A DNA stretch of 64,000 nucleotides from an uncultured Acidobacteriota bacterium (GTDB lineage: Bacteria > Acidobacteriota > Vicinamibacteria > Vicinamibacterales > SCN-69-37), in contig CAWAEG010000007.1 in assembly GCA_963780895.1 (NCBI GenBank), forward strand, positions 128,289-192,288. The letters run 5' to 3'. The notes beneath the pieces are model-generated. The model was not told the origin of the DNA. It was given only the letters and a program-made list of their open reading frames with translations, and ran no database searches. How positions within the stretch are numbered: position 1 is the first letter of the stretch; each line of letters begins with the position of its first letter. Shown here piece after piece: positions 24,922-43,141 of this stretch. The position numbers and the translations under genes were made by a program.

Positions 24922-26709
24922 TCACCCTCGCGGTTTCCATGGCGCAAACGCATTCTCGACACCCTGCAGCGCCGGTTTGACCTCCGGGACGTGCCTCGCG
25001 AGCAGCGCCAGCATCGTCGTCTTCGTGATGTAGTCGGTGCCGAACTCCGTGTAGAGCCTGGCGCCGTAGTCGTCTGTGAAGAAGCGGTCGCTCTTCAGGC
25101 GGCGTGACGCCATCAGGACGAAGATCCGAAACGCCGTGTCGCTGAAGCCGAAGCCATCCGGCAGCGGCTCGGCGAAGAGCCCGGTCATCAGGTCCACCAT
25201 CTCGATGTTGTTCTCGTAGACCTTCTTGATCTGCTTGCGCCACTCCGGGTTGTCGGTGATCTCGTCGAACGACGCCAGCGGCTCCTTGTGCACCAGGCGG
25301 CGGAACTGGTTGTAGCGGGGCACGCCGCGCTCGCGGTCTCGGAGGATGTCCACCGCCGCCAGATCGAAACGCTCGCCGTTGTCACGCGTCAGGTTCTGCA
25401 GGTGCTTCGGATAGTTGTGAAGCGTGATGGCGCCGGGGTGTGACACGCCGAACGTATAGAACAGGTCCGCCATCGAGTGCCGCTCGACGACCGCCCGCGT
25501 CTTGCGCCCGGCGATGTCCGGCAGCGACCGGCGGTCGATTTCGCCGCCGGTCGCGTTCGATCGGAACACCACTTCGTCCGGGATGAGCGGGTGCATGCGA
25601 TAGACGGCGACGAATTCCTCGGTCAGCGAGTAGGGCGCCGTGTGATGGTCGGCTTTCGATCCGATGATGCCGCCCAGCAGCTCGTCGTCGCCGATGAAGG
25701 CGAAGACCTCCTGCAGGTCCGGGTTCACCAGCCCGTTCCAATTCGTATTCATCGCCATCTTCACGACGGGGTGGGGAAGGATCGCGGGCGTCCATTCGAC
25801 GGTGTGAATCTTGGCCATCAGCGCCGAGTTGATGAGCTTCGCCGTCGCGAAGAGCTGGTTGTCGGTCCAGCCGCGATTGAGCTTCGCCAGCTCGTCGCAC
25901 AGGTAGTTGTGCTCGAGCGCGAAGAGCGTGTGCAGCATCGACAGGCCAATCCACCAGTTGTCGGTGAAGCCGGTGCAGTCGAGCCCGGTGGCCGGATCGA
26001 CCGGGAGCAGCTTCCCGGACGCTTCCATCATCAGCTTGCCGCCCTGGCCGCTGCGGAGGCTGGCGGCCACAGCGGTCTCGCAGCCGTACACCTGCGACGC
26101 GTCCCACCAGTGGCTGTTGCTGTTGGTGTACGCGGGCGGACGCGTGGAGCCGGCCGGCCCCGGATCGGGCACGCTCCGACCGACCTGCATTTTGCCGCCC
26201 TGCCAGTCGTCGCCTGGCGCCAGCGGGATCTCAATCCCATCGGCGGGCGCGGACTTCTTGTGCACGAACCAGTCGTGGACCATGAACTGAATCCACGACG
26301 CGGCCATCAGGTTGAGGATGGTCGCGGGCTTGAACTCGTCGCGCGTCATCAGCTCACGGCTCACGATGCGCGGATTCGGAACCAGCAGGTTGGCGGTATC
26401 GGGGAAGACATGCTCGAGCGGGACGTTCCGCCCGAACCGCCGGCCCGCACTGCCCATCGCCGGATACTGCAGGTCGTTGTGTGTCCCCTCGATCGTGCGC
26501 TCGTTGCGCAACGCCGGATCGAGATCGGCGGGGATCGGCTTTTTCTCGAGCGCCGGCTCCTCAGTGTCGTGCAGATTCTTGGCGCGAAGCTCGTTGCGGA
26601 TCTCGATGAGCCTGGGCATCGCGAGCAGATCCGGCAGCTTGTACCAGGGTCGGCGATTCTGCAGGAAGCTTCCGATACGGCCGAGCAGCGTCTCGTCGGG
26701 CATGGGCAT
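24922..26709 (-). CDS. haem peroxidase-cyclooxygenase superfamily protein, alpha-dioxygenase-like fatty-acid dioxygenase
   Basis: 595 aa. WIQFMVHDWFVH (distal His region) and EEFVAVYRMHPLIPDE (the YRMH Tyr/His pair) match motifs I recall from plant alpha-DOX and bacterial homologues. Confidence 0.8.
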   Translation of the reverse strand: MPMPDETLLGRIGSFLQNRRPWYKLPDLLAMPRLIEIRNELRAKNLHDTEEPALEKKPIPADLDPALRNERTIEGTHNDLQYPAMGSAGRRFGRNVPLEHVFPDTANLLVPNPRIVSRELMTRDEFKPATILNLMAASWIQFMVHDWFVHKKSAPADGIEIPLAPGDDWQGGKMQVGRSVPDPGPAGSTRPPAYTNSNSHWWDASQVYGCETAVAASLRSGQGGKLMMEASGKLLPVDPATGLDCTGFTDNWWIGLSMLHTLFALEHNYLCDELAKLNRGWTDNQLFATAKLINSALMAKIHTVEWTPAILPHPVVKMAMNTNWNGLVNPDLQEVFAFIGDDELLGGIIGSKADHHTAPYSLTEEFVAVYRMHPLIPDEVVFRSNATGGEIDRRSLPDIAGRKTRAVVERHSMADLFYTFGVSHPGAITLHNYPKHLQNLTRDNGERFDLAAVDILRDRERGVPRYNQFRRLVHKEPLASFDEITDNPEWRKQIKKVYENNIEMVDLMTGLFAEPLPDGFGFSDTAFRIFVLMASRRLKSDRFFTDDYGARLYTEFGTDYITKTTMLALLARHVPEVKPALQGVENAFAPWKPRG

Positions 26710-26887: not shown

Positions 26888-28702
26888 ATGGCCAAGAAGT
26901 CACGCCCCACCTCGAGTCCGACCGAGCCTCCCGTTCAATCAGCGTCGACCACTGTTGAAGCCGAGCGGGCGATCGTTGTCGCCCGCGGAGGCCAACGCCG
27001 GATCGACGTCACGCTCGTGCACGGCAGCATCCTCGACGTGCCGACACGCGCGATCGTGCTCGGACTGTTTCGAAACGTCGATCCCGGCGGCGCGGCGAAG
27101 GCGATCGACAATCGTCTCGGCGGCGCGCTGACCGAGCTGATGCGATCGCGGACGGTGTCGGCCGAGGCCGGCACGGTCTTCGTTCTTCCCACGGCACGCA
27201 CCGGCCTCCTCGCCGAGATGGTCGTCTTCGCCGGCCTCGGGCCGTTCGATCGATTCAATTCGAGCGTGATCCAGCTCGTCTCCTCGAACCTCGTCCGGAC
27301 GCTCGTGCGGGGCAACGTCGAGGAATTCTCGGCGGTGCTCTTCGGCGGCGGCTCCGGTTTCGACGTGCGCGAATGCGCGCAGCACCTGCTCCGCGGCGTC
27401 CTCGGCAGCTTGCGCGACGTCGATCCGAGTCACCGGTTTCGCGGCATCACGATCTGCGAGCTGGACGCGGCGAAGTTCGATCAAATCCGCGACGAGATCT
27501 ACAAAGGCTGCCGGGACGAGTTCTGCCGCGACGTCGACGTGGTCGTGCGCGAACGGCGGCTGCCGGTCCCCGAACGCACGCCGGTCCGGACAGGCGCCCC
27601 GGCGGTCAAGCCGAAGCCGGGCGAAGGCGAGCCGCTGTACCTGCTCGTGCGCACCGATGCCGCGACGAGCACGAAGCTGACGCTTCGGTGTGCCGTGTTG
27701 ACGTCGGGCAGCAAGGCCGCGGTGCTCGAGGGCGTGTGCGAGGTCCCGCGGCGTGCGCTCGATTCGGAACTGGGCGCGATCGAGGACCTGAGCTTCAATA
27801 CGGCGGTGCTCACGAAGCTCGGCCAGCGGCTGGCGCGCCTCGCGCTGCCCGAGTCCGTCAGGACCGAGCTGGCCAAGTCCAAACCGCGGCACGTCGCGGT
27901 CGTGCACGATTTGGAATCCGCGCGTCTGCCGTGGGAATGCCTCGACCTCGACGGTTGGATTCCCGCGCTGACCGGCGGCATGAGCCGCCGCTACGTCGCG
28001 AACAACCTGGCGGTCGGCCGGTGGTCGGAACATCGCGTCACCGACCGCGAGCTGGCCTTGCTGCTCATCGTCGATCCGACGAGCGATTTGCCGGGTGCAG
28101 TGGTCGAATCCGAGGGCATTCGCAAGCTCGTCGCGGCCGACCCGCGCGTCCGCGTGACCACGCTCGTGAAGGGCGAGGCGACGCGGGACGCCGTGCTGCA
28201 CCACTTCCGCTCAGAACGCTTCGACGCCATTCACTACGCCGGCCATGCCCATTTCGATCCGCAGGTGGTGGGTGAGAGCGGGATCCGCTGTGCGGACGGC
28301 CCGTTGCGCGCGCTCGATCTCCTGAACCTGCGCAGCCTGCCGCCGTTGCTCTTCTTCAACGCGTGCGAGTCCGGCCGGTTGAGGAAGCTGAGGAAGCTGC
28401 GGTCCGACCGCAGCGAGCCGTCGCGGAAAGCCGCGCGGAAGACGCTTTCGGATACGGTCGGATTCGCCGAGGCGTTCATGAGATACGGCGTCATGAATTA
28501 CGTGGGGACCTACTGGCCGGTCGGCGACGACTCGGCGGCCGGCTTCGCGCGCGCGTTCTACAGCGCGCTGCTCGACGGACAGGCGATAGGCCCGGCGCTC
28601 ATCAGCGGCCGGCAAGTGGTGCAGAAGACGGACTCAGTGGACTGGGCGGATTACATCCATTACGGGGATCCGCGGTTCACGCTCAAGAAATCCACATCGT
28701 GA
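26888..28702 (+). CDS. CHAT-domain (caspase-fold) protease with N-terminal macro-like / LAP-N-like domain
   Basis: Start at ATG 26888 (MAKKSRP...). C-terminal His/Cys dyad in IHYAGHAHFD and LLFFNACESG. The N-terminal ~170 aa (IVLGLF...AAKAIDNRLGGALTEL...VVFAGLGP) resembles the macro-like N-domain of M17 aminopeptidases. Confidence 0.8.
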   Translation: MAKKSRPTSSPTEPPVQSASTTVEAERAIVVARGGQRRIDVTLVHGSILDVPTRAIVLGLFRNVDPGGAAKAIDNRLGGALTELMRSRTVSAEAGTVFVLPTARTGLLAEMVVFAGLGPFDRFNSSVIQLVSSNLVRTLVRGNVEEFSAVLFGGGSGFDVRECAQHLLRGVLGSLRDVDPSHRFRGITICELDAAKFDQIRDEIYKGCRDEFCRDVDVVVRERRLPVPERTPVRTGAPAVKPKPGEGEPLYLLVRTDAATSTKLTLRCAVLTSGSKAAVLEGVCEVPRRALDSELGAIEDLSFNTAVLTKLGQRLARLALPESVRTELAKSKPRHVAVVHDLESARLPWECLDLDGWIPALTGGMSRRYVANNLAVGRWSEHRVTDRELALLLIVDPTSDLPGAVVESEGIRKLVAADPRVRVTTLVKGEATRDAVLHHFRSERFDAIHYAGHAHFDPQVVGESGIRCADGPLRALDLLNLRSLPPLLFFNACESGRLRKLRKLRSDRSEPSRKAARKTLSDTVGFAEAFMRYGVMNYVGTYWPVGDDSAAGFARAFYSALLDGQAIGPALISGRQVVQKTDSVDWADYIHYGDPRFTLKKSTS

Positions 28703-31544: not shown

Positions 31545-33711
31545 TCACTTGCCGCAGGCGTCGCGTTCCCGCTGCAGCGTCCGGTGCTGACCCGTCCGTT
31601 GAATGGCGCCATCCTTTTCTGACTGGGCGAACGCATTCAGCGCGCCCGGACAGTCGCCCAGATTCCTGAGCGCGACGCCGAGGAAATACTTCGGGAGGTA
31701 TTGCTCCGTGTTGCCGAAGCCGCTGATCGTGATTCGCTCGGTGCTCTCGGTGCCGTTGAGCGCAATCGCCTCGGTCAGGAGCCGGCGCACCTCCGGCCAC
31801 TGCCGTTTGTCCCGTGCAAGCATCGCCTTTCTGAAGGTCTCACGGTAATCGCCGCCCTTGGGCGGCGACGGCGGCGGTTCTTTCTCCGGTGGCTTCTTGT
31901 CCACCGGTTTGGGCTCGTCCGGCGGTGGTGGCAGCGTGTACCCGCTTGTCGGCATTCCGGCGCCACCGGTCGGTAGCTTCTTGCTGAGATCTTCGGCCTT
32001 GGCCTGCACGACGGCGGCCTTCTGCTGTTCCTGGACGACCGCCTGGTTCAGATCGGTGTACTGGTCCTGAGCGGCTTTTGCCTTTGCCGTGGCGACGTTG
32101 GCCTTGGCCTCGGTGGCCGCGGCGCCCGTCGTATCACCTGCGCGCGCCAGCACACCGGCTTGCTGGAAAAGCGTCTGGGCTTCCTCGAATCCGGAGATGG
32201 CTGACGCCTGCGCCAGCTTCGCCTTCTCCTGCAGGTCCTTCACGCGGGCGTCCGCGGCAAAAAATTCTTCCTGCAGTGCCTTGAGCTCGAGTGCTGTGGC
32301 TTGCAGGCGGCGGCGCTGCTGCTGAGCGAAGAATGAGAGCACGAGCACCGCGAAGAGCAGCACCCCTGTGACGCTCAGCAGGCCGAACAGCAGCCGGCGC
32401 TGTTTGCGAAGCCGCGTCGCGGCCTGCGCTTCGTGCTCGGCCCGCTGCCGCTGCTCCTCGGCGCGCGCTTCGGCCTCGGCCCGCTCCGCGGCCGACGTGT
32501 ACCGATTGCGCCACTCCAGAACCGCGCCGGCCAGCACGTCATGAAAAATCTGATAACACTCGAGCGACGGCTGGTCTGGCGGCGGCGCGACGGGGACGAG
32601 GATGCGGTTTTCGCCGCTCGAGAGCCGGACGAGTAATGGCTGAATCCGCTCTGGCTGGCGCTTGGCGTAGTGCGCGAGATCGTCGAGGCTCAGCGCGATC
32701 TTCGTCCCTGACGGCGTCACCAGGAACTGGAAGATCGCCGCGGCGGCCTTGCGCTCTTCTTCGGTCAGGGCATCGAGCGCCGCGTCGAGATGCGTGGCGA
32801 CGATGTGCCCCGCGCCGCCGAGCCGTTCGAGCGTGGACGCGCGCAGCTCACGCGATCCGGCGGCCGTCTCTTCCTGCCAGAGCCGGGTGAGAACAAGCTG
32901 CAGGTACGGGGTCTCGACGCGGTCCTCGTGCGTGCGGCCGTCGCCTGACATGCCCAGCCGGCCTTTGCCCGTCCCCGCGATCGCCACGCGGCCTGTCGTC
33001 ACCTGGTTCAGCACCAGCTCGACCAGCTTGGGATCCATCTTCATCGGCGGCGTGCCCGGCGGCAGCCGTTTGTTGAACTGGTCGATAGGCTTGACGATGG
33101 CGTCGCGCGCCTGGGTGCGCTCGAGGTGATCGATCCGGAGATAGTTGTCGAAGAGATTCGGAATCCGGCCTTTGAAGAAATCGAGCTTCGCGATCGAGTC
33201 CTCGCGCATCGAGACGAGGAAGCTCACGCGGAGGTCGCTCCGGTTGACGACGCGCGGGAACTCGACCGCGAAGGTGCCAGGGCCGTCGGCGGTGCTGTGG
33301 TAGAGGAAATACTCCTCGAACTGATCGAGGATGATCAGCAAATCGCTTTCGACGGCCTCGGTCGCGTTCACCAATCGATCGGCGAACGTGTTCCCGGCGG
33401 CCGCGCGTCCGATCTCGCGTCCAAGCGCGCGTTCGAGGCCCGCGAGCGGATCGTCCCGCCACGTCCGGAAGATGACGATGCCGAATTCGGGTTTGCCTCG
33501 GGTCGGTTCGCGCCTGGTCCTCGCGCAGGTGGTGCGCGACGCCGGCGTTCAGGACGGAGCTCTTGCCGACGCCGCTCGGGCCGTAGAGCAGCGTCAGGCG
33601 CGACGCCATCAGGTTGGCGGTGATGATTTCCCGTTCGGCTTCGCGTCCAAAGAAGAAGTCAGCCTGTTCCTCGGTGAACGGCATCAGCCCGGCGTACGGG
33701 CATTCAGGCAT
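31545..33711 (-). pseudogene. nSTAND-type P-loop NTPase with TM helix and extracytoplasmic coiled-coil/Pro-rich/TPR-like tail; apparent +1 frame disruption near 33505-33548
   Basis: The N-terminus MPECPYAGLMPFTEEQADFFFGREAEREI...LLYGPSGVGKSSVLNAGVAHHLRED is in the frame of track ORF 32848..33711. The continuation EPTRGKPEFGIVIFRTWRDDPL...ESDLLIILDQFEEYF (Walker B) is in the frame of ORF 31545..33374. The TM helix LLFGLLSVTGVLLFAVLVLSFFA is encoded at 32325-32393. Confidence 0.65.
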
Positions 33712-34684
33712 GCGGCGCCGCCTCGGCCTGCGGGAGGAGCCGCAAGCGGCCGCGCACGGCCGCGATGTAGCGCGCCAGGTCGATGTCCAGGATGTCCACG
33801 TCGCGGCGGCCCCAGAACTTCTCGTCGAGCGTCGTCGGATGCCGCTGGATCGCCCAGGACTGATAGTTCAGCCGCTGTTCGCCGGCGATCCGGTGCAGGA
33901 TGACGCGCAGGTTCCAGTCGCGGAGGCCGTATCCGAGAAACAGAAAGTGGCTCTTGCGCAGCTTGGCGGTGAGCGTCACCGGAATCAGGTTCGCGAGATC
34001 CGTGCGCGTCAGGTAGTCGATGTAGTGGTCTTCGGTGATGACGTAGCTGTCGGCCTCGCCGTCGGCGACCGAGCGGTTGATCGCGCCGTGAATCTTCAGA
34101 ATGATCGTGCGCTTCTCGAGCGAGAGATCGCGGTACTGGTTCGGGATGTCGATCACGCGGGAGTTGCCGTCGGGATCCGTGTGCTGGAACTTGCCCTTGG
34201 TCTCGCCTTCGGAGATGTACGTCACCAGGTCGAACGGTTCCTTTGCATCCTGAAACGCCCGCTCCAGCACGTCGTCGTAATTCGTGCTCACGATCAGCTG
34301 GTGCCGGGAGGGGTGGCCTTTGTCGCGCAGTAGCGAAGGAAGCTCCGCGAGCAGCCGGTGCAGGGCGGTCGGCGGGTAGTCGTGATCGAAGACGTCGTGG
34401 AGCGACCCGAAGAGCCCGCCGGTGCCGGTGGTGAGCGCGACGAACTGCGACACGCGTGTCAGGTCGGCTTCGCCCGAGAACTTGAATTCCTTCGCGAGGT
34501 GGGCGGACAGCTCGCTGCCGCTCGGCAGGTACGCCCTCGTCGGATGGGGCCAGGCCACGTCCGGCGGCCGGCCGCACAGGTTCGCGCCGGCGCCGAGGAA
34601 CGGCACGACCCGGCCGTCGAGCAGGAACGTGATCAGGTTCCCGTAGTGCTGCTGAAGCGTTGCGTCGATGGGCTGGCAGCGCAT
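33704..34684 (-). CDS. SIR2-like (SIR2_2 family) protein, putative NADase effector
   Basis: 326 aa with the motif order VPFLGAGAN, IVSTNYDDVLE, LKIHGAI and FLFLGYGLRDWN. Its TGA overlaps the ATG of the NTPase gene (ATGCCTGA, 33704-33711). Confidence 0.75.
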   Translation of the reverse strand: MRCQPIDATLQQHYGNLITFLLDGRVVPFLGAGANLCGRPPDVAWPHPTRAYLPSGSELSAHLAKEFKFSGEADLTRVSQFVALTTGTGGLFGSLHDVFDHDYPPTALHRLLAELPSLLRDKGHPSRHQLIVSTNYDDVLERAFQDAKEPFDLVTYISEGETKGKFQHTDPDGNSRVIDIPNQYRDLSLEKRTIILKIHGAINRSVADGEADSYVITEDHYIDYLTRTDLANLIPVTLTAKLRKSHFLFLGYGLRDWNLRVILHRIAGEQRLNYQSWAIQRHPTTLDEKFWGRRDVDILDIDLARYIAAVRGRLRLLPQAEAAPHA

Positions 34685-34720: not shown

Positions 34721-34821
34721 AGGGCCGTTCTCACTTTCCTGTAGCGAGCTAATTGCTCAATTCTGCCGAAAGTCTCGCGACCCTTGTCGATTTTGCTCTA
34801 CGAGGAAGTGAGAACAGCCCT
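34721..34821. repeat. ~100-nt inverted-repeat element, copy 2 (arms agggccgttctcactttcc / ggaagtgagaacagccct)
   Basis: Arms at 34721-34739 and 34804-34821. It starts 36 nt upstream of the SIR2 ATG, and its distal arm covers the stop codon of the FadL-like gene. Colinear with the 5321-5419 copy. Confidence 0.7.
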
Positions 34822-36169
34822 AGTATCGGATCACAACGGAAAACGTTACGTACTTGGTCTGGGCGGCCAGGTCGGCCGCGCCGTTGATTTCCAGCCAGCG
34901 GGCCGGCGCCAGTCCGGCCCCGAAGGTGTAGTGGGCCTGCGAGGAGCCGCCGGGCAGGGTGGCCATGAACAGCCGATCGACGTCGTCGAGCGCCGGTGAA
35001 GGGTCGTAACGGACGGTGTGATCGGGGTCGTGCCAGAACCCGCCGCGAAGGGCGAGCGGGATGGGCGCGTTCGGAAACAGGTACTCGGCGCCGACGTGGA
35101 ACTCGTTGCCGTCGTCCAGCAGGAGCCGCTCGGGCCGCTGGCTGATGAGCGACTGGAAGAAGATGAAGTCTTCCTTGAGCTGGCCGTACTGCACGCGGTC
35201 GTAGTCCATCACCAGGCGGAGCGCGTCGGTCGCGCGCCACTCCACGCCCAATCCGAACACGTCCGGAACCTTGAATTTGCCGACTCTAAGCAGGTCGAGG
35301 CCGATCGAGGGCGCGAGATCCTCCTGCGTGAACGTGAACGCCGGTCCGCGACGGTAGGTTGCGCCGACTTTGACGCGCGGCACGACATCGAAGAGGACGC
35401 CGGCGTTGACGCCGGCCGTCCAGTCGTCTGCTCGCTGAGTGGCGGTGGCGGTGGTCAGATTCAAATTCGGCACGCCCGCGAAGTTGCCCTCAACCCCGAA
35501 CCGTGCGAAATCAGCCTCCAGGTCGAACCGGTACAAGGCAAGCCCACCGCCAACCGACAATCGCTCAGACACTTTGTAGCCGACCGAGCCACCGTAGTTA
35601 CGGATCCGCACGGCCCTCGTGCCGCCGACGGGGGTGGTCCGCGTGCGATCGTCGACGACGCCCAGCTCGACGGCGCGCTCAAAGACGCCTTGACTGAAGT
35701 ACGTGTTCTCGATCGTCGCGACCTCATGGCGATAGCCGATCACGCTCGCCTTGGCGCCGATTGGCCAGAGAAACGAGACAAACGCGGGGCCGAACTGATC
35801 GTCGATGTCTTCCCGGTACACAGGGGTCGGGATGGTGTCGAGCCCGATATTGGTCACGGTGCCGGTGATTCGGCCGCCGAACAGAAACGGCGTTTCCAGC
35901 CGCTTGAATCGCAGTTCCGCCGAGATCTCCCGGCGTCCGAGCCGCGCCAGACCCGCCGGATTCGTGAACGCGGCGGTCGCATCGTCGGCGGCCGCGATGA
36001 ACGCGCTGCCCATGCCCACGCTGCGAGCGCCGGGTGGCAGGAAGTCGAACTGCAGCGGCAACTGCACCGTGTTCTGGGCAAAGGCCGGCTGCGCGGCCGT
36101 GATCGCGACAGTCGTCGCGACTGCCGCTGCCAGGCGTCCGTACCCAGCCCGCCGGGCCATCAACCGCAT
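34820..36169 (-). CDS. outer-membrane transport protein, FadL/OmpP1/TodX-like
   Basis: Start at ATG 36169 (MRLMARRAGYG...AFAQ signal). GARSVGMGSAFIAAADDATAAFTNPAGLARL is the family's N-terminal hatch motif. Beta-barrel-type alternation, ending ...TFSVVIRY. Confidence 0.7.
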   Translation of the reverse strand: MRLMARRAGYGRLAAAVATTVAITAAQPAFAQNTVQLPLQFDFLPPGARSVGMGSAFIAAADDATAAFTNPAGLARLGRREISAELRFKRLETPFLFGGRITGTVTNIGLDTIPTPVYREDIDDQFGPAFVSFLWPIGAKASVIGYRHEVATIENTYFSQGVFERAVELGVVDDRTRTTPVGGTRAVRIRNYGGSVGYKVSERLSVGGGLALYRFDLEADFARFGVEGNFAGVPNLNLTTATATQRADDWTAGVNAGVLFDVVPRVKVGATYRRGPAFTFTQEDLAPSIGLDLLRVGKFKVPDVFGLGVEWRATDALRLVMDYDRVQYGQLKEDFIFFQSLISQRPERLLLDDGNEFHVGAEYLFPNAPIPLALRGGFWHDPDHTVRYDPSPALDDVDRLFMATLPGGSSQAHYTFGAGLAPARWLEINGAADLAAQTKYVTFSVVIRY

Positions 36170-37209
36170 GGCCCGTTTCGAATGAATGTCACTCGGATAG
36201 TCACTTCGGCATTCCCGTTTGGAGTGACGACCTCCAGCGTGACGTCTCGGTCCGTGACCGTCCCGACGTTGCCGGATCCAAAACTGCCGCACCCGAGTCC
36301 GAGGCCAGACAGCGTCGGACTTGTGCGTGACACCGTGAGGACGTTATTCGACTGTGGAAATCTCCAGATGTAGTTGGTGATCCCGCCCTGTGGCGTCGAC
36401 GCGCCCGCGTCAAACGTACATTTCATGAGGTTCGTTGAGCCTCCCCCGGGCGCGGGAATCGACTGCACTTCGCATTGTTGACCCGTCGCGATCGTGTTGG
36501 GGTCAGGGATCACTCGGAACGTGGCGACGATCGGCACGGCGTTGATCGCGAGATTGGCAGTACGCGTCGTAGCCCCGAGTGTTCCTGTAATGGTGACGTT
36601 CGCCGCCGCGGCGGTCGTGACGGTCACCGTGAATGCCGCCGTCGTATTGCCCTGGGTGACGGTGACGCTCGTCGGCACCGTCGCGGCGCCGCTATTGCTC
36701 GACAAGCCGACCGTGGTCCCGCCCGATGGCGCTGGCCCCGAAATCGTCACGGTGCCCTGGACGGTACCGATGCCGCTCACCGCCATCTGCGCCAGCGTGA
36801 CCGACACCAAATCGATGGGCGCGGCGGTGACGTTGAGGTTCGCCGTCTGCGCTCCGCCAAAGTTCCCGGTAATCGTCGCCGTGCCGGCCGAGACTCCCGT
36901 CACCGCGAAGTTGGCCGATTGAGATCCTTCTGGAATCGACACCGTGCCGGGTACGGTCGCAACGCTGGTATTACTGCTCGACAGCGTCACACCCGCGCCG
37001 CCGGTTCTGGCCGCGGCCGAGAGTGTTGCGGTTCCCTGAATCGTCTGCCCGGCGACGACCGAACCGCCTGACGCGAGCGTGATCGACTGCAGCACCGGTG
37101 TCGGCGCGTTGTTGCCGCCGTTGCCGTTACCGCCGCAGGCGGACAGCCCGCCGAAGGTCACGAACGCAGTGACGAACCCCACGATGCGGGAACGTTGGAT
37201 GTGAGACAT
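36160..37209 (-). CDS. lipoprotein with three Ig-like (Big-type) repeats and a Cys-containing C-terminal domain
   Basis: Start at ATG 37209. Lipobox GGLSAC. Three ~70-aa repeats of the form V..G.T.QGT.T.S......G..V.LSS.N..VATVP..V....G...A.F.V.......TITG......TANL.V.A. Confidence 0.7.
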   Translation of the reverse strand: MSHIQRSRIVGFVTAFVTFGGLSACGGNGNGGNNAPTPVLQSITLASGGSVVAGQTIQGTATLSAAARTGGAGVTLSSSNTSVATVPGTVSIPEGSQSANFAVTGVSAGTATITGNFGGAQTANLNVTAAPIDLVSVTLAQMAVSGIGTVQGTVTISGPAPSGGTTVGLSSNSGAATVPTSVTVTQGNTTAAFTVTVTTAAAANVTITGTLGATTRTANLAINAVPIVATFRVIPDPNTIATGQQCEVQSIPAPGGGSTNLMKCTFDAGASTPQGGITNYIWRFPQSNNVLTVSRTSPTLSGLGLGCGSFGSGNVGTVTDRDVTLEVVTPNGNAEVTIRVTFIRNGPCG

Positions 37210-37341
37210 GTCAACCTTCCTGGCCGAAACCTTCACGAGAAACGCCCGCTGGGGAGTTGCAGGGCGCGAAAACAGGCGTGGGGAGCTGGAATCTTAGCAG
37301 ACTCCCCGTTTGGTGAGGATGAAGCAGACTGGCCGCCCTCG

Positions 37342-38742
37342 TTACGACCCGGGCGTGAACAGCCGCTGCAGGGCGGAGAAATCGTAGCTGAGCCCGATCT
37401 GTCCGCGGACGAACCGCTCCTTCGTCAACGAATTCGGATCATTTGTGTAGATGATGGAAACCGGGATCCGTCCCCCGCCTTTCACGGGCACTTCGACGCT
37501 GGTGAAGATCTTCCAGGTGTCTTCGGCCGGCACCGGCAGAGAGGCCGTATCGGTGAACATCGCCAGACTCCCGCCGACACTCCAGTCGAGCGTCCGGCCA
37601 GCCACGATGGCGTTCGGCACCAGGTGCAACGTCACGCCGCCGGACACCGTCCAGATCTTCGTCTGGAACAACTGGTCGACGCCGAGCCGGATGTCGTCGG
37701 TCAACGCGTACTGCGCGTTCAGCGTGAGGTCCGACGGGCCGAGGCCGATGTCGAAGAGCGCGGCGAACGCGTATTTGTTCCGGCCGGCTTCCTGTGTCAG
37801 GTGCGTGCCCGCTACCTTCACGCTCAATTGCGGCGCTTTGGCGAGGCGCGACTTGATCGCGGCGAGACCTTCGCCGACCTGCTTCGCCAAGAGACTCTGC
37901 ACGATGGCGGCGTCTTCGAGCGCCTGCTGCGGCGGCTCGCCGGCGCGTGGCGCCGTTCCGACAAGAGAGAGCAGCACCGCGGCCTTTTGCGTCAGCAGGC
38001 CGCCGGCCCGGACGGTCGTCGGCGACCATCGTGCGCTCCGGGGATCCTTGTCGCCCCACACCCGGACCTTGACGTCCCATCCGAACGTGTCGAGCAGCCG
38101 GTCGAAGTCGGGGAAGCCGCTGAACCCCGTGATTTCGCTTTCCGGGATTTCCGCGCCGAAGACGACGGTGCCGCTGAACCGGCGCGCGAGCGAGTGCCGC
38201 TGGTAATCGGCGATCGACGAATAGAGATCGGAGTCCTTCAGTGTGACCAGCGCGAGCGCGTTCACGTTGAGGCTGATGGCCGTCTTGTCGGCGCTCGCCA
38301 CACTCGCCAGATCGGCGGCCAGCGCCAGGAGCGACGTCGAACCGCTGCGCTCCGGGAGACCGGACGTCATGGGATTCGTGCTCGTGGCGTTCACCGACGT
38401 CGGGACTCGAGACTCGACCTGTTCGTCGATGAGTGCCTGCACGTATGCCGGCGTGAACAGCGCCAGCAGCTCCGCATCGTCGCGCAGCCGCTCGAGGACT
38501 TTCGTGTAGACCGCGACTTTGGCGTCCCGCGCGCCGGTCAGACGGCGGTCGGCGACGGTGAGGCCCGCATCACGCGCCGCCTCCGCGAGGAATCTCGTCC
38601 ATAACTCCGCGAGCCGTGCGTCCACGGCCGCATCGATTTCCGAGCGGGACGCGCGCTGCGCGTTGGCTGGCGTCGCGGACGCCAGAACGGCAAGCGCCAC
38701 GGCAAGGCCGGCGACGGCACGGCGACAGGTCACGGCGGTCAC
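37342..38742 (-). CDS. secreted hypothetical protein (~467 aa)
   Basis: GTG start at 38742 (VTAVTCRRAVAGLAVALAVLASATPANAQ signal peptide), directly after the TGA of the upstream gene at 38745-38747. The C-terminal half alternates like a beta-barrel. No recognised family. Confidence 0.6.
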   Translation of the reverse strand: MTAVTCRRAVAGLAVALAVLASATPANAQRASRSEIDAAVDARLAELWTRFLAEAARDAGLTVADRRLTGARDAKVAVYTKVLERLRDDAELLALFTPAYVQALIDEQVESRVPTSVNATSTNPMTSGLPERSGSTSLLALAADLASVASADKTAISLNVNALALVTLKDSDLYSSIADYQRHSLARRFSGTVVFGAEIPESEITGFSGFPDFDRLLDTFGWDVKVRVWGDKDPRSARWSPTTVRAGGLLTQKAAVLLSLVGTAPRAGEPPQQALEDAAIVQSLLAKQVGEGLAAIKSRLAKAPQLSVKVAGTHLTQEAGRNKYAFAALFDIGLGPSDLTLNAQYALTDDIRLGVDQLFQTKIWTVSGGVTLHLVPNAIVAGRTLDWSVGGSLAMFTDTASLPVPAEDTWKIFTSVEVPVKGGGRIPVSIIYTNDPNSLTKERFVRGQIGLSYDFSALQRLFTPGS

Positions 38743-39766: not shown

Positions 39767-39828
39767 AATGACCTCGGAGGTCATTTCCGCGGAAAACCGC
39801 GGCAGGAAATGACCTCCGAGGTCATTTC
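39765..39828. terminator. triple-hairpin bidirectional terminator between convergent genes
   Basis: gaaatgacctcggaggtcatttc (39765-39787), ccgcggaaaaccgcgg (about 39787-39802) and gaaatgacctccgaggtcatttc (39806-39828). The outer palindromes contain the TGA of the + gene (39764-39766) and of the - gene (39822-39824). Confidence 0.7.
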
Positions 39829-41114
39829 AACCCCCTCCACATCGTCCACGGCCCGCGAAACACCAGCGCTTCGGCGGGCGGCAGACCGGCACGCTTCGGC
39901 ATCAGGTTCAGCGCCTGGAAGCCGTCGAGCAGGAGCGGCGGCGAAGCCGGCATGGAGGGTTTGAGTCCTGCCAGCTTCGCGAGCGCCTCCGCGTCGGGCA
40001 ATTGCTTGAAGTAGCCTCGCAGGTTGCCGACCACCGTCCGCAGATCCTGCACCTCGCCCCGCCGCGCCAGCTCGTAGGCGGAGAGCAACGCGACGATCGG
40101 CTCGAACCATTTGAAGTAAAGCAGGAACTGGAGCTCGTTGGCGGTGAGCAGCGTCTTCAAGTCTTCGGCGCGCGCAAAGGCCCGCTGGACTTCGACGCAC
40201 CGGCGGACGAGCCGCAGCGGTCCGCTCACTTCCTTCAGGCCCTCGGTGCTCTGATCGAGCCACAGCCCGCTGCCCTCGGGAAGGGTATTGAGGAACCTCC
40301 GCAGCGGCAGGATGAACTGCTGGATCTGCAGCGGACCTTTGGCCTCTTGCGCGAGCGTCACCAGCGTCCCGCGGCCGTGGAGCAGGCACACGCCGAACGT
40401 GACCGGCGCGTTGCCGTCTACCTGCACTGTCAGGTACCGGTAACCCACCGGGCCGCCCGGAGCGGAGATCTCGAAGAGGCCAGGAAACGCCGAGTGCGGC
40501 GTGACGGGTTGGAGCGGCGTCCGCCAGTCCTTGCTCAATGCGGCGCGTAGCCGGACGTTCGGTTGCTCGAAGCCAGCCAGCGCATAGAAGGCGGTCTCGA
40601 TCTTCGGGCCGTCGAAGCTCGCGAGGGGCAAGGAACCCAGCTTCGAAAAATCACCGGGCCCGCCGGTGATTCGCGCCGCCCCGATCAAGGCGAGCCACAG
40701 GTCGAGGCCCTGATCCGGCGTCGGGCCGAGCGACTCGGAAAAATCGACGGCGCCACTCCCATGCGACCCGTGAATTCCACCGAGCAGCGCGTGGCGCAGC
40801 GGGCTGTCTGGCATCTGCGTGAGATCCATCACCCGCGGACCGGCCTCGAGCGTGACTTCACGGCGATCGATGACGACGCCCCGGTCGTTGTGGGTCTCCA
40901 TCCGGTAGGTGCCGGGCGCGAGCTCGACGGTGCTGGATGCGGTCAGGTGCTCGGTCCTGTCCTTGCCGCCTCGGACGACGACCTGCGCGCCGGCGGGCAC
41001 GACGATGTCGACGACCGCGGTCGGCAGCGGGGCAGCCGCTCCGCCGCCTCCACGTGTGGGGCCGCGACCGGTCCCGGTTCCACCCGTTTCAGCGGCGCGA
41101 CCGAGAGACTGCAC
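39822..41114 (-). CDS. hypothetical protein: beta-rich segment plus ~300-aa helical module (may be the frame-shifted continuation of the caspase-like gene)
   Basis: The track ORF has a GTG start at 41114 and overlaps the upstream gene by 172 nt. An alternative ATG is at 40901. VDIVVPAGAQVVVRGGKD...VELAPGTYRMETHN resembles the beta segment at the end of the caspase-like protein. No recognised family. Confidence 0.55.
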   Translation of the reverse strand: MQSLGRAAETGGTGTGRGPTRGGGGAAAPLPTAVVDIVVPAGAQVVVRGGKDRTEHLTASSTVELAPGTYRMETHNDRGVVIDRREVTLEAGPRVMDLTQMPDSPLRHALLGGIHGSHGSGAVDFSESLGPTPDQGLDLWLALIGAARITGGPGDFSKLGSLPLASFDGPKIETAFYALAGFEQPNVRLRAALSKDWRTPLQPVTPHSAFPGLFEISAPGGPVGYRYLTVQVDGNAPVTFGVCLLHGRGTLVTLAQEAKGPLQIQQFILPLRRFLNTLPEGSGLWLDQSTEGLKEVSGPLRLVRRCVEVQRAFARAEDLKTLLTANELQFLLYFKWFEPIVALLSAYELARRGEVQDLRTVVGNLRGYFKQLPDAEALAKLAGLKPSMPASPPLLLDGFQALNLMPKRAGLPPAEALVFRGPWTMWRGLK

Positions 41115-42154
41115 CTCGAACTGGAGGGCGCAGTCGTCGTAGAGATCTGCCGGAACGGGTCCGTCCGGGCCGGACGATTGTCCGCGCCGGCCTTCTTGGG
41201 CTGCACCTGGACGAAGTAGTCGTCGGGCGGCGCCTGGAACGTGCGTGTCGGACCGGTGAACGTGAAACGGTCAACGACCTGACCCAGGTCGTTCTTCACC
41301 TGCACCTGGAATGCGTCCGTTGCACCCGCGTTCTCGACGTTGACCGAGCAGGTGTACTTGAGCGACGGATCCAGCTTTCGGATGACGCCATCGCCGCCTT
41401 CGCTCCGCGGGTCGACCTCCGTGTCGAGCCGCCGCTCGATGTAGCCCCGAAGAGAGTCGAACAGCACGGTAAACGTCCCTTCGAAGAAACGCTTGGCTTT
41501 GCCCTTGCCGTTCAGCCCGTCGATCAGCGCCTCGGGAAAGCCGCCGGCGACGTTCGCGACAGCCCCGACGGTCGTCGAGCACAGCGTGTAGACCGGCGCC
41601 TTTTTCCGGACGGATGGATCGAAGACGAGACCGAGCGGCGCGACCTTGATGTCTTTTTCGGTGATCTTGTTCCGGCACGCGTCGATGAAGTAGAAGTGCC
41701 CGCACCGCGTCGAGCCCGGCGCCGTGACAGATCCGAGACACATCTTCAGCCATTTCTGGATCTCGTCGAGCTTGAGGCAGGCGTCGCCCGATTCGTCCCG
41801 CTTGACGAAATCAGCGGCGATCAGCACGTCGGCCGTCGGCACGTCGTCCACGTCCACGTACGAAAATCCGTGGCCGCTGAAGTAGAAGAACAGATCATCG
41901 GTCGTGTCTTTCGCGATGTCCTTGAAGCGCTTCAGCTCCTGCTTGATGGCCGGCCGCGTCGCGTCGCTCGTCCGTCCCGTCAGCGCCGGATCTTCCGCGC
42001 AGAAGAAGATGTCCGCGGCCGCCAGCTTCTGAGTGCCGATCAGCCAGTCCCGAAACGCCAGCGCGTATTTGTGGGTGCCGGGAAGCGTGCTGTTGAGCCC
42101 CTCCTGCATGTGGGCGTAGTGTTCGATCGCGATGATGAACGCGCGTTTGGCCAT
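40943..42154 (-). CDS. caspase-like (peptidase C14 fold) protease
   Basis: RAFIIAIEHY..., the His in LFFYFSGHGF and the Cys in HFYFIDACRNK (compare QACRG). The last ~65 aa (RQISTTTAPSSSRCS...SSTSSCPPARRSSS) look like out-of-frame translation. Confidence 0.7.
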   Translation of the reverse strand: MAKRAFIIAIEHYAHMQEGLNSTLPGTHKYALAFRDWLIGTQKLAAADIFFCAEDPALTGRTSDATRPAIKQELKRFKDIAKDTTDDLFFYFSGHGFSYVDVDDVPTADVLIAADFVKRDESGDACLKLDEIQKWLKMCLGSVTAPGSTRCGHFYFIDACRNKITEKDIKVAPLGLVFDPSVRKKAPVYTLCSTTVGAVANVAGGFPEALIDGLNGKGKAKRFFEGTFTVLFDSLRGYIERRLDTEVDPRSEGGDGVIRKLDPSLKYTCSVNVENAGATDAFQVQVKNDLGQVVDRFTFTGPTRTFQAPPDDYFVQVQPKKAGADNRPARTDPFRQISTTTAPSSSRCSLSVAPLKRVEPGPVAAPHVEAAERLPRCRPRSSTSSCPPARRSSSEAARTGPST

Positions 42155-42174: not shown

Positions 42175-43134
42175 CTACGGCGTACGGGTCGCGTCCGCGA
42201 CGAACTCGGCGGCCGCCGCAGCCGACACCGCGCCGTTCCGGTACATGAACTCACCGGTGAAGTGGAGGCCCACGACCGCGCCCGTCTCGAGCGCCATGAC
42301 GGGCGAGCCCGAGTTGCCGCCGAGCGTCGAGCAGTCGTGAAAAACCAGATCGCCGCGCGCGGCGATGAGCTCGCCGACCGCACCGCGCTTGACGCCGTAG
42401 CGGTCCTGGTAAATCGCGTCGACGAAGAGGGGATTGCGGTCGTCTTTGTACGGGTACCCGAGCGTCCCGACCATCAGGTGGGCCGGCAGCGCGCCCGCGT
42501 CGAATTGCAGTACCGGACGCGTGTCGGGTACCTGCACCTGCAGGAGCGCCATGTCCAGCGCCGGGTGAATCGCCACGACCTTCAGGATCGGACACGCCGG
42601 CACGGGTTCGGGTCCGTCGTATTCCTGATAGAAGCGAATCACCGCCATTCCCGAATCGAGCTCATCCGCCCCGTGCGAGAGCACAGAGACCACATGGTGG
42701 TTCGTCAGCACGAGATCGGGAGCGACCAGGAACCCTGTGCCGACGTGCGGATTGGACCCGGCGGTGCGATCGAGACGGCCGACCGAATACAGAATCGGCG
42801 CGCTGTTCGTGCAGAACCGATCCCAGGCGGCCGAGACCTGCGGCTGGTAGACGCTGCTGCCACGCTCGGCCGGCAGGGGCTGCAGGCGGCCGCGGATCGA
42901 GAGCGGAGCCGGGCGCATCATCCGGATGACGAACTCGAGCGCGGCAAGCTCGGTCGCCGTCGGCCGCTCACGTCCCGATCGCAGCTTGTCCAGCGCGGCC
43001 TGCGCCGCCTGTTCGCTGTCAGGCACCTTCGGCAGGCCGACAATGGCCCGGACTTTCGCGACCGCCTCGTCAACGCGGAGTTGACCGAACGTCCGCTGGG
43101 CCCGGCCGTAGAGATTCTGGTCGTCGGTCGCCAT
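42175..43134 (-). CDS. trypsin-like (chymotrypsin-fold) serine protease with N-terminal extension
   Basis: Start at ATG 43134. Triad context GTGFLVAPDLVLTNHHV, DMALLQV and STLGGNSGSPV. The ~120-aa N-terminal region is unassigned. Confidence 0.8.
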   Translation of the reverse strand: MATDDQNLYGRAQRTFGQLRVDEAVAKVRAIVGLPKVPDSEQAAQAALDKLRSGRERPTATELAALEFVIRMMRPAPLSIRGRLQPLPAERGSSVYQPQVSAAWDRFCTNSAPILYSVGRLDRTAGSNPHVGTGFLVAPDLVLTNHHVVSVLSHGADELDSGMAVIRFYQEYDGPEPVPACPILKVVAIHPALDMALLQVQVPDTRPVLQFDAGALPAHLMVGTLGYPYKDDRNPLFVDAIYQDRYGVKRGAVGELIAARGDLVFHDCSTLGGNSGSPVMALETGAVVGLHFTGEFMYRNGAVSAAAAAEFVADATRTP

Positions 43135-43141
43135 CGCGCGT

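Follow-up and report, generated by a model that had tools for sequence, protein, structure and literature searches.

A widespread gene pair encoding a predicted SIR2-type NAD+ hydrolase and a predicted membrane-anchored nSTAND1 NTPase, identified in an uncultured Acidobacteriota bacterium

Analysis of a 64,000-nucleotide stretch of DNA from an uncultured Acidobacteriota bacterium (the window) identified a gene for a SIR2_2-type protein with an nSTAND1 NTPase gene directly 3' of it on the same strand. The same arrangement was present in 87 of 88 related loci, which were drawn from many phyla, and the single locus without an adjacent nSTAND1 gene was at a contig edge; the co-occurrence that an initial annotation of the window had left to be checked thus extends to other genomes. 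Gene order and comparative sequence analysis indicate that the SIR2 gene and the gene for the membrane-anchored nSTAND1 NTPase are a real, widespread module without a name, of conflict type, conserved, and with two core genes that are inherited together. On balance, we favour the interpretation that this two-gene conflict-type module comprises an envelope-sensing STAND that would switch on a SIR2 NADase. The features of the core pair were as follows:

33704–34684, reverse strand: SIR2_2-type protein of 326 aa, predicted NAD+ hydrolase (effector), from Pfam, profile alignment and an AF2 model.
33704–33711, reverse strand: SIR2/NTPase overlap ATGCCTGA, predicted from the sequence to couple translation.
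31545–33711, reverse strand: nSTAND1 NTPase gene, 721 aa after repair and frame-broken in the window, from Pfam PF20703 and the orthologue P0122.

The SIR2 stop codon and the NTPase start codon overlap within the 8 nt of ATGCCTGA (ATG at 33711–33709 and TGA at 33706–33704), as had been read from the window initially, and an overlap of 8 nt or 4 nt was repeated in the gene calls of related loci L001, L004, L090, L093, L096, L097 and L098. The SIR2 protein and the NTPase were encoded by two genes in all 87 paired loci. The sole candidate for a SIR2-nSTAND1 fusion (L034) was rejected because the SIR2 gene in this long-read MAG is frameshifted at its 3' end, and other apparent fusions were rejected as stop-to-stop shadow ORFs in high-GC DNA. 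Pairwise identities of the SIR2 protein and the NTPase covaried (r 0.66, a value reached by 0 of 999 Mantel permutations). The cores of the pair showed mean pairwise identities of 56% and 51%, and the NTPase tails were hypervariable, with a mean column identity of 11%. Two pairs with different tails were present in one genome for L027/L051, L053/L082 and L059/L083. Hypervariable tails, several pairs per genome and a patchy spread give the family the look of a conflict system.

At least 524 species genomes, spread over many phyla, encoded relatives of the window SIR2 protein, and cultured carriers of the pair were Actinoplanes sp. CA-054009 and Humibacillus xanthopallidus KV-663. No third gene was conserved across the family when all flank ORFs of 80 loci were clustered, the next cluster comprising only 9 loci. 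The contexts were mixed across loci; housekeeping genes flanked the pair in L090 and L093, and defence-like neighbours were seen in some loci only, including HepT/MNT and transposases (L004), TIR (L007), and caspase, trypsin and CHAT (the window). The viral contigs scanned contained no relatives. No Rfam families were found across 26–45 kb of the window, promoter and terminator scans showed nothing beyond the shuffled expectation, and there was no NCBIfam name for the SIR2 protein or the NTPase.

The domain assignments made initially for both proteins were correct, and all of the quoted motifs were found in place. Pfam SIR2_2 (PF13289) matched the SIR2 protein with an E of 5.5e-23 (82.1 bits against a cut-off of 24.5), and the motifs comprised FLGAGAN at residues 29–35 (GAG at 31–33), STNYDDVLE at 133–141, KIHGAI at 197–202 and FLGYGLRD at 249–256. 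The presence of catalytic Asn and His had been raised as a check; profile alignment placed Asn135 (TNYDD) and His199 (KIHG) in register with N133 and H171 of DSR2, and both residues were invariant among 18 relatives. As there are only two cysteines, the protein is without a Zn module. The best Foldseek matches of the AF2 model (pLDDT 76.7) were KomC, ThsA, DSR2, EfAvs5 and SIR2-HerA (E 8.5e-12 to 1e-8, TM ~0.6); identity to ThsA, DSR2, KomC and SIR2-HerA was only 16–20%. By sequence profile and by fold alike, the nearest relatives were defence NADases throughout. These features and the start/stop overlap mark the SIR2 protein as a small enzyme of the cytoplasm that is translated from the message of the NTPase and is predicted to be an NAD+ hydrolase.

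Pfam nSTAND1 (PF20703) matched residues 5–424 of the repaired NTPase with an E of 6.3e-46 (158.2 bits against a cut-off of 27.1). The N-terminal motif CPYAGLMPFTEEQADFFFGREAE was present at residues 4–26, Walker A (GPSGVGKSS) at 44–52 and Walker B (LLIILDQFEE) at 124–133. Walker A, Walker B and the other NTPase motifs were conserved in 68 loci and formed invariant columns in alignment A4. No solved nSTAND1 structure was found by single-sequence or profile search, which returned P-loop matches only (E ~0.1). Two features of this part of the gene are relevant to its reading frame:

32394–33711, reverse strand: NTPase module and charged helix, aa 1–439, with Walker A at 33556–33582 and Walker B at 33312–33341.
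33503, reverse strand: one surplus A, in the coding-strand context GCGAACCG[A]CCCGAGGC, causing the NTPase frameshift, from alignments to L001–L003 and L089.

The NTPase is not encoded by a single ORF in the window. As assembled, the gene is split over two frames, A from 33711 to ~33505 and B from ~33500 to 31545, and the listed ORF at 31545–33374 (TTG start) represents only its 3' fragment. Removal of the A at 33503 gave one stop-free ORF of 721 aa with 96.5% identity to P0122, which is intact at 721 aa. Similar single-base frame breaks were present in related long-read assemblies (GH3 and barrel in L089, SIR2 in L096 and L034), at a rate of ~1 per 10 kb that fits consensus errors. Because related assemblies carry such frame-breaking indels, the extra A is likely to be an assembly error rather than a true pseudogene mutation. 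It is doubtful that a real 1-bp insertion has inactivated the sensor of a self-toxic system and left an orphan SIR2 gene. Such a pseudogene would be consistent with the presence of the break in the sequence as given, with the source's own gene call of a truncated 608-aa product (P0124), and with a second conflict-type gene nearby, a caspase at 39822–42154, that is also frame-broken in the window. However, relatives at 96–97% identity are intact and exactly 721 aa, no other damage was identified in the NTPase gene, and the breaks in the sister assemblies lie in unrelated genes.

The initial description of a membrane-anchored STAND was borne out by a helix that directly follows the NTPase module:

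32325–32393, reverse strand: transmembrane helix LLFGLLSVTGVLLFAVLVLSFFA, aa 440–462, N-in/C-out, from the hydrophobic segment and the flank charges.

A transmembrane helix was present after the NTPase module in 67 of 73 family loci. Its flanks contained a mean of 5.2 K+R on the N side versus 2.4 on the C side, with N exceeding C in 66 of the 67 loci. Loci L036, L037, L057, L059 and L069 were without a transmembrane helix, and there was almost no tail beyond the helix in L029, L042, L054, L072 and L093 (the L093 NTPase is 486 aa); with such members, a large outside sensor is not obligatory. In most members the outside tail comprised 250–1000 residues, and the tail types varied (WD40, CHASE2 and others), with one family tail identified as a CHASE2 domain at E 2.7e-40. 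CHASE2 is an established extracytoplasmic sensor domain. The conserved features were the helix and the charged segment preceding it. By this predicted topology, the nSTAND1 NTPase is an inner-membrane protein whose ATPase switch is cytoplasmic and whose variable tail, beyond a single transmembrane helix, lies outside. The extracytoplasmic position of the tail was absent from the initial annotation.

The tail of the window NTPase comprised three parts:

31935–32324, reverse strand: Ala/Gln/Lys-rich helical stalk of ~130 aa, predicted periplasmic coiled coil, from 24 aligned orthologues and composition.
31860–31934, reverse strand: Pro-rich linker (LPPPPDEPKPVDKKPPEKEPPPSPP), from orthologue alignment, differing in length between orthologues.
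31548–31862, reverse strand: C-terminal domain of 105 aa, predicted periplasmic docking or sensor domain, from alignment A3 and AF2.

The coiled-coil character of the stalk is a putative assignment. The 105-aa domain was comprised of two TPR-like hairpins, a beta-hairpin insert and a capping helix, with two invariant cysteines (A3, AF2), and was modelled with a pLDDT of 91.8. A search of the PDB for its fold returned generic TPR matches only (E 0.04–0.1), and no Pfam family was found for it. The domain was represented by 1497 clusters in the representative library. It was N-terminal in 106 of the 148 best matches scanned, and in 101 of these 106 it came directly after a hydrophobic leader of the signal-peptide type. 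No second copy was present within the window, and a metagenome scan with the domain recovered NTPase-fused copies only. This TPR-like two-cysteine domain and its co-occurrence with an outer-membrane barrel are new here. The neighbouring genes were as follows:

34820–36169, reverse strand: outer-membrane beta-barrel of the FadL/Toluene_X type (Pfam PF03349, E 2.8e-16); it carries a signal peptide and ends in FSVVIRY.
36160–37236, reverse strand: repeat-rich lipoprotein with lipobox LSAC, from homologues beside the barrel; no Pfam match.
26894–28702, forward strand: CHAT protease (CHAT, E 1e-26) with a leucyl aminopeptidase-like N-domain (Peptidase_M17_N, E 1.6e-6).

The FadL-like barrel occurred in all 14 loci with an A3-type tail and in none of the 58 with other tails, a link that represents one clade and two kinase-type loci, so that the 14 are not phylogenetically independent. 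Lipoprotein homologues were found beside the barrel in L001, L009, L089, L096, L099, L100, L101, L103 and L112, and fn3/BACON proteins occupied the same position in L097, L098 and L114; the lipoprotein itself may have an Ig-like fold. The gene set of the window occurred in two gene orders, that of L100 and L101 and that of the window. In L095 and L114, the triad of tail domain, Ig-like protein and barrel was joined to transmembrane Ser/Thr kinases, and the barrel adjoined signal-peptide A3 proteins; the evidence from signal-peptide-type loci consists of these two. The barrel and the lipoprotein are candidate outer-membrane partners of the tail domain. The initial view of a two-gene unit stands for the core pair, but in the clade of the window it is always accompanied by the barrel and the lipoprotein. 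The N-terminal part of the CHAT protein matched the leucyl aminopeptidase N-domain in the PDB (E 5e-4). A CHAT protease was adjacent in L009, L089, L097, L099 and L111, and not in L096, L098 and L100; it is a recurrent neighbour that is possibly linked to the pair, its membership being uncertain.

On its sequence features, the pair resembles Avs5 in logic and is not a member of that system. In both, a SIR2_2-type NADase would be controlled by a STAND NTPase whose sensor varies, with NAD+ depletion as the expected output, and the window SIR2 model matched the EfAvs5 structure 9jap. However, Avs5 is a single cytoplasmic polypeptide in which the NTPase is an nSTAND3 (PF20720) and the sensor is of TPR or Sel1 type; a hydrophobic segment at its N-terminus lets it act at entry sites associated with the membrane (PMC12931631). 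The window effector is instead a separate gene with no SIR2-STAND fusion, its NTPase is an nSTAND1 (PF20703) with no nSTAND3 match at E ≤ 0.01, and its N-in/C-out helix precedes the tail, which would place the sensor region outside the cytoplasm. PADLOC Avs models gave no match, no PADLOC model recognised the window NTPase, and the PADLOC ThsA models matched the window protein by their SIR2 part only. The SIR2_2 fold and the catalytic Asn/His are common to the window protein and ThsA, DSR2, KomC and SIR2-HerA, and SIR2-HerA is similarly a two-gene pair of SIR2 and NTPase, although the window partner is nSTAND1 and not HerA. Unlike ThsA, the 326-aa protein has a SIR2 domain only, without SLOG, and there is no TIR (ThsB) gene in the operon; it also differs from DSR2 in having no long C-terminal sensor and from KomC in having no KomA/B partners.

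The nSTAND1 clade, to which the window NTPase also belongs, was defined in counter-invader systems by Kaur, Iyer, Burroughs and Aravind in 2021 (PMC8195603). Their supplementary table contains 278 listings of nSTAND1+TM+BetaPropeller, and CASPASE+nSTAND1+TM+BetaPropeller fusions, with N-terminal effectors, are also listed in the supplement (PMC8195603); membrane anchoring itself is not new, as it was already catalogued there. However, the text is without a stand-alone SIR2 partner, and in supplementary file 1 SIR2 occurs 7 times versus 1181 for nSTAND1, the two SIR2 occurrences examined being other than the pair (PMC8195603). The TPR/2-Cys tail domain and the barrel link are not described in that work (PMC8195603), and its effector-associated adaptor domains (EADs) are absent from the window pair. 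Kaur et al. 2020 contains neither SIR2 nor nSTAND (PMC7159879). The suggestion that the architecture is unnamed was supported in that PADLOC has no model for the NTPase and the pair differs from Avs5, but had to be qualified by the catalogued nSTAND1+TM+beta-propeller proteins.

In the mechanism that we propose, a signal at the outside tail would cause the NTPase modules to exchange nucleotide and oligomerise on the inner side of the membrane, and this assembly would recruit and activate the SIR2 protein, with NAD+ hydrolysis followed by growth stop or cell death. The defence SIR2 enzymes ThsA, KomC, Avs5 and DSR2 are switched on by assembly. In the clade of the window, the stalk, the Pro-rich linker and the disulfide-type TPR domain would most likely reach the FadL-like barrel and its lipoprotein, and the event reported at the outer membrane could be a phage attaching or entering, a toxin, or damage. 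A tentative extension is a trans-envelope immune receptor, in which the barrel and lipoprotein would be an exposed tripwire, the stalk and a new disulfide-bonded TPR domain the reader, the STAND an NLR-like switch, and the separate SIR2 protein the NADase. A barrel-tail interaction in the window is suggested by a single kind of evidence, gene co-occurrence. By analogy only, FecA-FecR-FecI is similar in that a single-pass inner-membrane protein spans the periplasm, reads an outer-membrane barrel and controls a cytoplasmic output; however, the window has no TonB-dependent transporter, no anti-sigma/sigma factor and no homology to that system, and its output would be a STAND NTPase and an NADase. 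An abortive-infection or anti-phage role of the pair is putative and draws on what is known of the family. More speculatively, the neighbouring CHAT protease could read released ADP-ribose through its macro-like domain, which is of the leucyl-aminopeptidase N-type.

A non-lethal role in envelope or nutrient signalling appears unlikely, in which the barrel would import or sense a hydrophobic compound or report the envelope state, the tail would relay inward, and the STAND-SIR2 pair would tune metabolism through the NAD+ level, protein de-acylation or ADP-ribosylation while the cell survives. FadL-family barrels do transport hydrophobic molecules, and the occurrence of the outer-membrane triad on ordinary transmembrane Ser/Thr kinases, the housekeeping neighbourhoods of L090 and L093, the lack of relatives in the viral contigs scanned and the lack of a PADLOC model that fits the NTPase are all consistent with such a role. 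It is opposed by the absence of a Zn module in the SIR2 protein, by the nearest relatives being defence NADases, by the definition of nSTAND1 in counter-invader systems, and by hypervariable tails on conserved cores, with multiple pairs per genome and a patchy distribution across phyla at 50–60% identity. We consider it improbable that sensing is cytoplasmic and performed by the NTPase module itself, with the helix as an anchor at phage entry sites or as a membrane-damaging second effector and the tail as an accessory. The retention of the helix in the near tail-less variants, the conservation of the helix and its charged segment, and the precedent of Avs5 at membrane-associated entry sites (PMC12931631) point in that direction, but 250–1000 outside-tail residues are present in most members, the CHASE2 tail is a genuine sensor domain of the extracytoplasmic kind, and the window-type tail is strictly accompanied by an outer-membrane barrel.

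To our knowledge, the bacterial STAND or NLR-like receptors known so far (Avs, bNACHT) detect phage proteins within the cell. In the family described here, the variable receptor part would lie outside the cytoplasm, and the NADase would be a subunit of its own, co-translated with the receptor. If the envelope-sensing interpretation is true, NLR-like immunity logic would be extended to surveillance at the surface or in the periplasm, much as eukaryotes divide their receptors between surface and cytosol, and a trans-envelope receptor would be the first of the STAND type for which sensing outside the cytoplasm is shown. The outer-membrane sensing module would then represent a reusable cassette, plugged into Ser/Thr kinases as well. 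The analysis also defines an unannotated, predicted periplasmic domain family, with 1497 clusters and no Pfam model, that ties FadL-like barrels to inner-membrane signalling proteins. The module is a tractable two-gene system, for which cultured carriers exist.

The initial annotation had proposed, from sequence motifs, a SIR2-like gene coupled to a STAND-type NTPase gene. Pfam profile searches bore out both identities and placed the NTPase in nSTAND1. The features of the pair, and of the NTPase beyond its catalytic module, are as follows:

33704-34684, minus strand: SIR2_2 protein gene, 326 aa (Pfam PF13289, E 5.5e-23)
31545-33711, minus strand: nSTAND1 NTPase gene (Pfam PF20703, E 6.3e-46, residues 5-424 of the repaired protein)
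NTPase aa 440-462: transmembrane helix
NTPase tail, after the helix: Ala/Gln/Lys-rich helical stretch of ~130 residues
NTPase tail, second element: proline-rich linker
NTPase tail, third element: 105-aa domain with two invariant cysteines, conserved in orthologues down to 46% identity

Every motif quoted earlier was found at the expected residues. The proposed overlap of the two genes was seen on reading the sequence, where the NTPase ATG (33711-33709) lies within ATGCCTGA and gives an 8-nt overlap with the SIR2 stop (33706-33704). PADLOC matched the 326-aa protein to the SIR2 part of ThsA-type models only, and returned no meaningful match for the NTPase. Neither protein had a model in NCBIfam.

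More than 5900 homologues of the SIR2 protein were scored in a large protein collection, and the best matches were stand-alone proteins of ~320 aa. The GAG motif, N135 (TNYDD) and H199 (KIHG) were invariant in an alignment of 18 relatives with identities down to 59%. A profile built from this alignment placed N135 and H199 on N133 and H171 of DSR2, and also recovered KomC and ThsA. As the protein has just two cysteines, it lacks the sirtuin zinc module. The AlphaFold2 model (pLDDT 76.7) matched KomC, ThsA, DSR2, EfAvs5 and SIR2-HerA (E 8.5e-12 to 1e-8, TM ~0.6), which are defence effectors that degrade NAD+. The catalytic Asn and His, whose absence would have spoken against the original proposal, are thus present in the alignment, and the active site is intact by sequence.

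Scanning a single genome for each species gave SIR2 relatives in at least 524 genomes. The matches listed included Acidobacteriota, Chloroflexota, Actinomycetota, Gemmatimonadota, Myxococcota, KSB1, Gammaproteobacteria, Rokubacteria and Firmicutes, the closest among them being from a Vicinamibacterales MAG. The co-occurrence anticipated for the pair was found in other genomes, with an nSTAND1 gene directly downstream of SIR2 on the same strand in 87/88 loci; at the sole exception (L063) the contig ends there. Carriers of the pair include Actinoplanes sp. CA-054009 and Humibacillus xanthopallidus. Start/stop overlaps of 4 or 8 nt were present in most contexts in independent gene calls. The pairwise identities of the two proteins were correlated across 68 loci (r 0.66, a value reached by 0/999 Mantel permutations). 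The two genes therefore share a co-translation geometry and are co-inherited. Clustering of all flank ORFs identified no third gene conserved family-wide. Mean pairwise identity was 56% for the SIR2 core and 51% for the NTPase core; the region after the NTPase had a mean column identity of 11%. Several genomes carried two pairs with different tails (L027/L051, L053/L082, L059/L083 and L063/L073), which looks like a receptor-like expansion of paralogues. Two pairs also share one 5.7-Mb Blastocatellia contig. The settings of the pair varied: in a soil contig (L004 1486-5867) it adjoins transposases (DDE_Tnp_1, rve) and a HepT/MNT toxin-antitoxin pair, a mobile, defence-island-like setting, and in L090 and L093 the setting is housekeeping.

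In the window, the reading frame of the NTPase changes: 33711 to ~33505 lies in one frame, and ~33500 to 31545 in a second. Alignment to intact orthologues (L001-L003, 726 aa; L089, a syntenic sister assembly, 721 aa) showed that position 33503 holds one extra A (GCGAACCG[A]CCCGAGGC). Deletion of this base restored a single 721-aa ORF, 96.5% identical to the homologue P0122; three relatives at 96-97% identity were all intact at exactly 721 aa. The gene call of the source (P0124) is a truncated fragment of 608 aa. L089, with 95% DNA identity to the window, has single-base breaks of its own in two genes, GH3 and the outer-membrane barrel (L089 12389-15068 and 7552-8955); the barrel is broken at its C-terminus, where the window and L001 have the normal end ...FSVVIRY. 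The SIR2 gene is split in L096 (5027-6008), and its 3' end is frame-shifted in L034 (~6800-6950). The caspase gene of the window is broken as well. Frame-breaking indels thus occur about once per 10 kb across several related long-read-style assemblies, which points to a general error rate of these MAGs and makes an assembly artefact the more likely explanation. A real pseudogene in the source genome is the less likely reading of the window copy.

A hydrophobic helix followed the NTPase module in 67/73 loci. The 12 residues before it contained a mean of 5.2 Lys+Arg and those after it 2.4, with the excess on the N-terminal side in 66/67 loci. By the positive-inside rule, this charge bias predicts a cytoplasmic NTPase with its tail outside. 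Tails ranged from ~10 to ~1000 residues. WD40 propellers were present in 34/60, polytopic membrane regions formed the tails of L004 and L061, and others were unannotated; a few members had no tail or no helix. One member, from an Actinomycetota MAG (L086 5490-6638), carried a CHASE2 domain (E 2.7e-40) flanked by membrane helices. CHASE2 is a known extracytoplasmic sensor, so that here an nSTAND1 NTPase partnered by SIR2 clearly bears an extracytoplasmic sensor of the small-molecule type.

The 105-aa tail domain of the window protein matched no Pfam family. Its AlphaFold2 model (pLDDT 91.8) comprised two TPR-like hairpins, a beta-hairpin insert and a capping helix, and matched only generic TPR proteins in the PDB. 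A disulfide between C71 and C103 is possible. Searched against 1.84 billion representative proteins, a profile of the domain matched 1497 clusters. In 106 of the best 148 hits scanned, it started at approximately residue 23 of a ~380-aa protein; 101 of the 106 had a hydrophobic leader, and the start of the domain coincides with a site of signal-peptidase type (...A|DY[KR]). This position directly behind a leader independently supports a site of action outside the cytoplasm, and the domain is predicted to be extracytoplasmic. The ~380-aa proteins form a large unannotated secreted family (P0257-P0388; L095 2869-4056; L114 8001-9440) in which a signal peptide and the TPR/2-Cys domain are followed by a Pro-rich linker, a helical region and, at the C-terminus, a conserved ...FSPRF.xFF motif. 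For ten members, Pfam gave no match.

A FadL/Toluene_X-type barrel gene (34820-36169, minus strand, in the window) was present in 14/14 evaluable loci with the window-type tail domain, the window included, and in 0/58 loci with other tails (Fisher's exact test p 3e-15, for loci that are phylogenetically non-independent). The tail domain thus strictly co-occurs with the barrel. NTPase identity to the window was just 47-58% in three of the loci compared (L096-L098), and scores were lower still in L100 and L101. Beside the barrel there was usually a protein homologous to the repeat-rich lipoprotein of the window (36160-37236, minus strand) or an fn3/BACON protein. The order differs in L100, L101 and L112, a divergent subclade with the lipoprotein and barrel genes downstream of the NTPase and not upstream of SIR2; the gene set has therefore been retained through rearrangement. 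Two loci (L095, L114) have the tail domain in a signal-peptide-type protein, accompanied by a Toluene_X barrel and by a Ser/Thr kinase with a transmembrane segment; L114 additionally has a BACON (Ig-like) protein. One outer-membrane set thus appears, from these gene contents, to be wired to two different cytoplasmic outputs. The two kinases bear a small periplasmic C-terminal domain.

Several other genes in the window were noted. A 463-aa protein (37345-38733, minus strand) has a signal peptide (…ASATPANA|QRAS) and a strand-like alternating sequence but matches nothing in Pfam. Only close relatives (L001, L009, L089, L099) conserve it at this place, upstream of the lipoprotein, and it may be a further outer-membrane protein. 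The caspase (Peptidase_C14) gene at 39822-42154 (minus strand) consists of two overlapping ORFs (40943-42154 and 39822-41114) and is unsplit in L001 and L089 (770-772 aa); its break, near 41165-41184, makes it a second frame-disrupted conflict-type gene less than 10 kb from the NTPase. Directly upstream are a trypsin-like peptidase (42178-43191, minus strand) and a calcineurin-like phosphoesterase (43145-44428, minus strand). The trypsin and caspase genes also adjoin in L089, and this may be a separate conflict-type cluster. The N-terminal domain of a CHAT protease (26894-28702, plus strand) resembles the one in leucyl aminopeptidase (Peptidase_M17_N E 1.6e-6; PDB E 5e-4), and the protease recurs near the window-type cluster in varying relative positions (L009, L089, L097, L099, L111). 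We take this domain to have a macro-like fold, so that binding of ADP-ribose made by SIR2 is conceivable and might occur. The adjacent gene (24925-26709, minus strand) encodes a 593-595-aa protein, and its counterpart in L089 is an animal-haem-peroxidase (An_peroxidase) gene.

The pair shares with Avs5 the logic of a SIR2 under control of a STAND. However, Avs5 is a single fused polypeptide with an nSTAND3 NTPase and a cytoplasmic sensor (PMC12931631), and the window pair differs in all three of these features. ThsA, DSR2 and SIR2-HerA were also rejected as the identity of the system. The NTPase falls in nSTAND1, a clade of predicted counter-invader NTPases that was named by Kaur et al. 2021 (PMC8195603). 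The suggestion that this is not a named system stands for the SIR2/nSTAND1 pair, but not for the architecture of its NTPase: nSTAND1+TM+BetaPropeller and CASPASE+nSTAND1+TM+BetaPropeller are already listed in the supplementary tables of that study. A SIR2 partner is not discussed in its text, and SIR2 occurs just seven times in supplementary file 1 (PMC8195603). Two elements are rated as new: the unnamed, widespread, split pair of SIR2 and membrane-anchored nSTAND1, and the link of a new periplasmic domain to an outer-membrane barrel.

With regard to how the pair might work, the sequence findings were considered together with what is established for both families. In STAND NTPases the switch consists of nucleotide exchange and oligomerisation, driven by a ligand; in the defence SIR2 enzymes (ThsA, KomC, Avs5, DSR2), assembly turns on the activity that depletes NAD+. 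By analogy, the most likely model is that an event sensed outside the cytoplasm would cluster the NTPase modules under the membrane, which would activate the separate SIR2 subunit and lower NAD+. A non-lethal signalling role would be consistent with the kinase-wired version of the outer-membrane module and with the housekeeping gene contexts; given the NAD+-degrading effectors that the SIR2 model resembles, we consider it unlikely. Sensing purely in the cytoplasm, with the helix serving as an anchor or membrane effector, would fit the tail-less variants; the CHASE2 tail and the strict co-occurrence of the window-type tail with the barrel speak against this alternative, and we regard it as quite improbable. 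Under the favoured model of outside sensing, the event in the window clade would occur at or under the outer-membrane barrel. If fully helical, the stalk could extend over ~20 nm; with the Pro-rich linker, this would fit a reach across the periplasm. Candidate triggers are the attachment or entry of a phage, a toxin, damage and a hydrophobic ligand.
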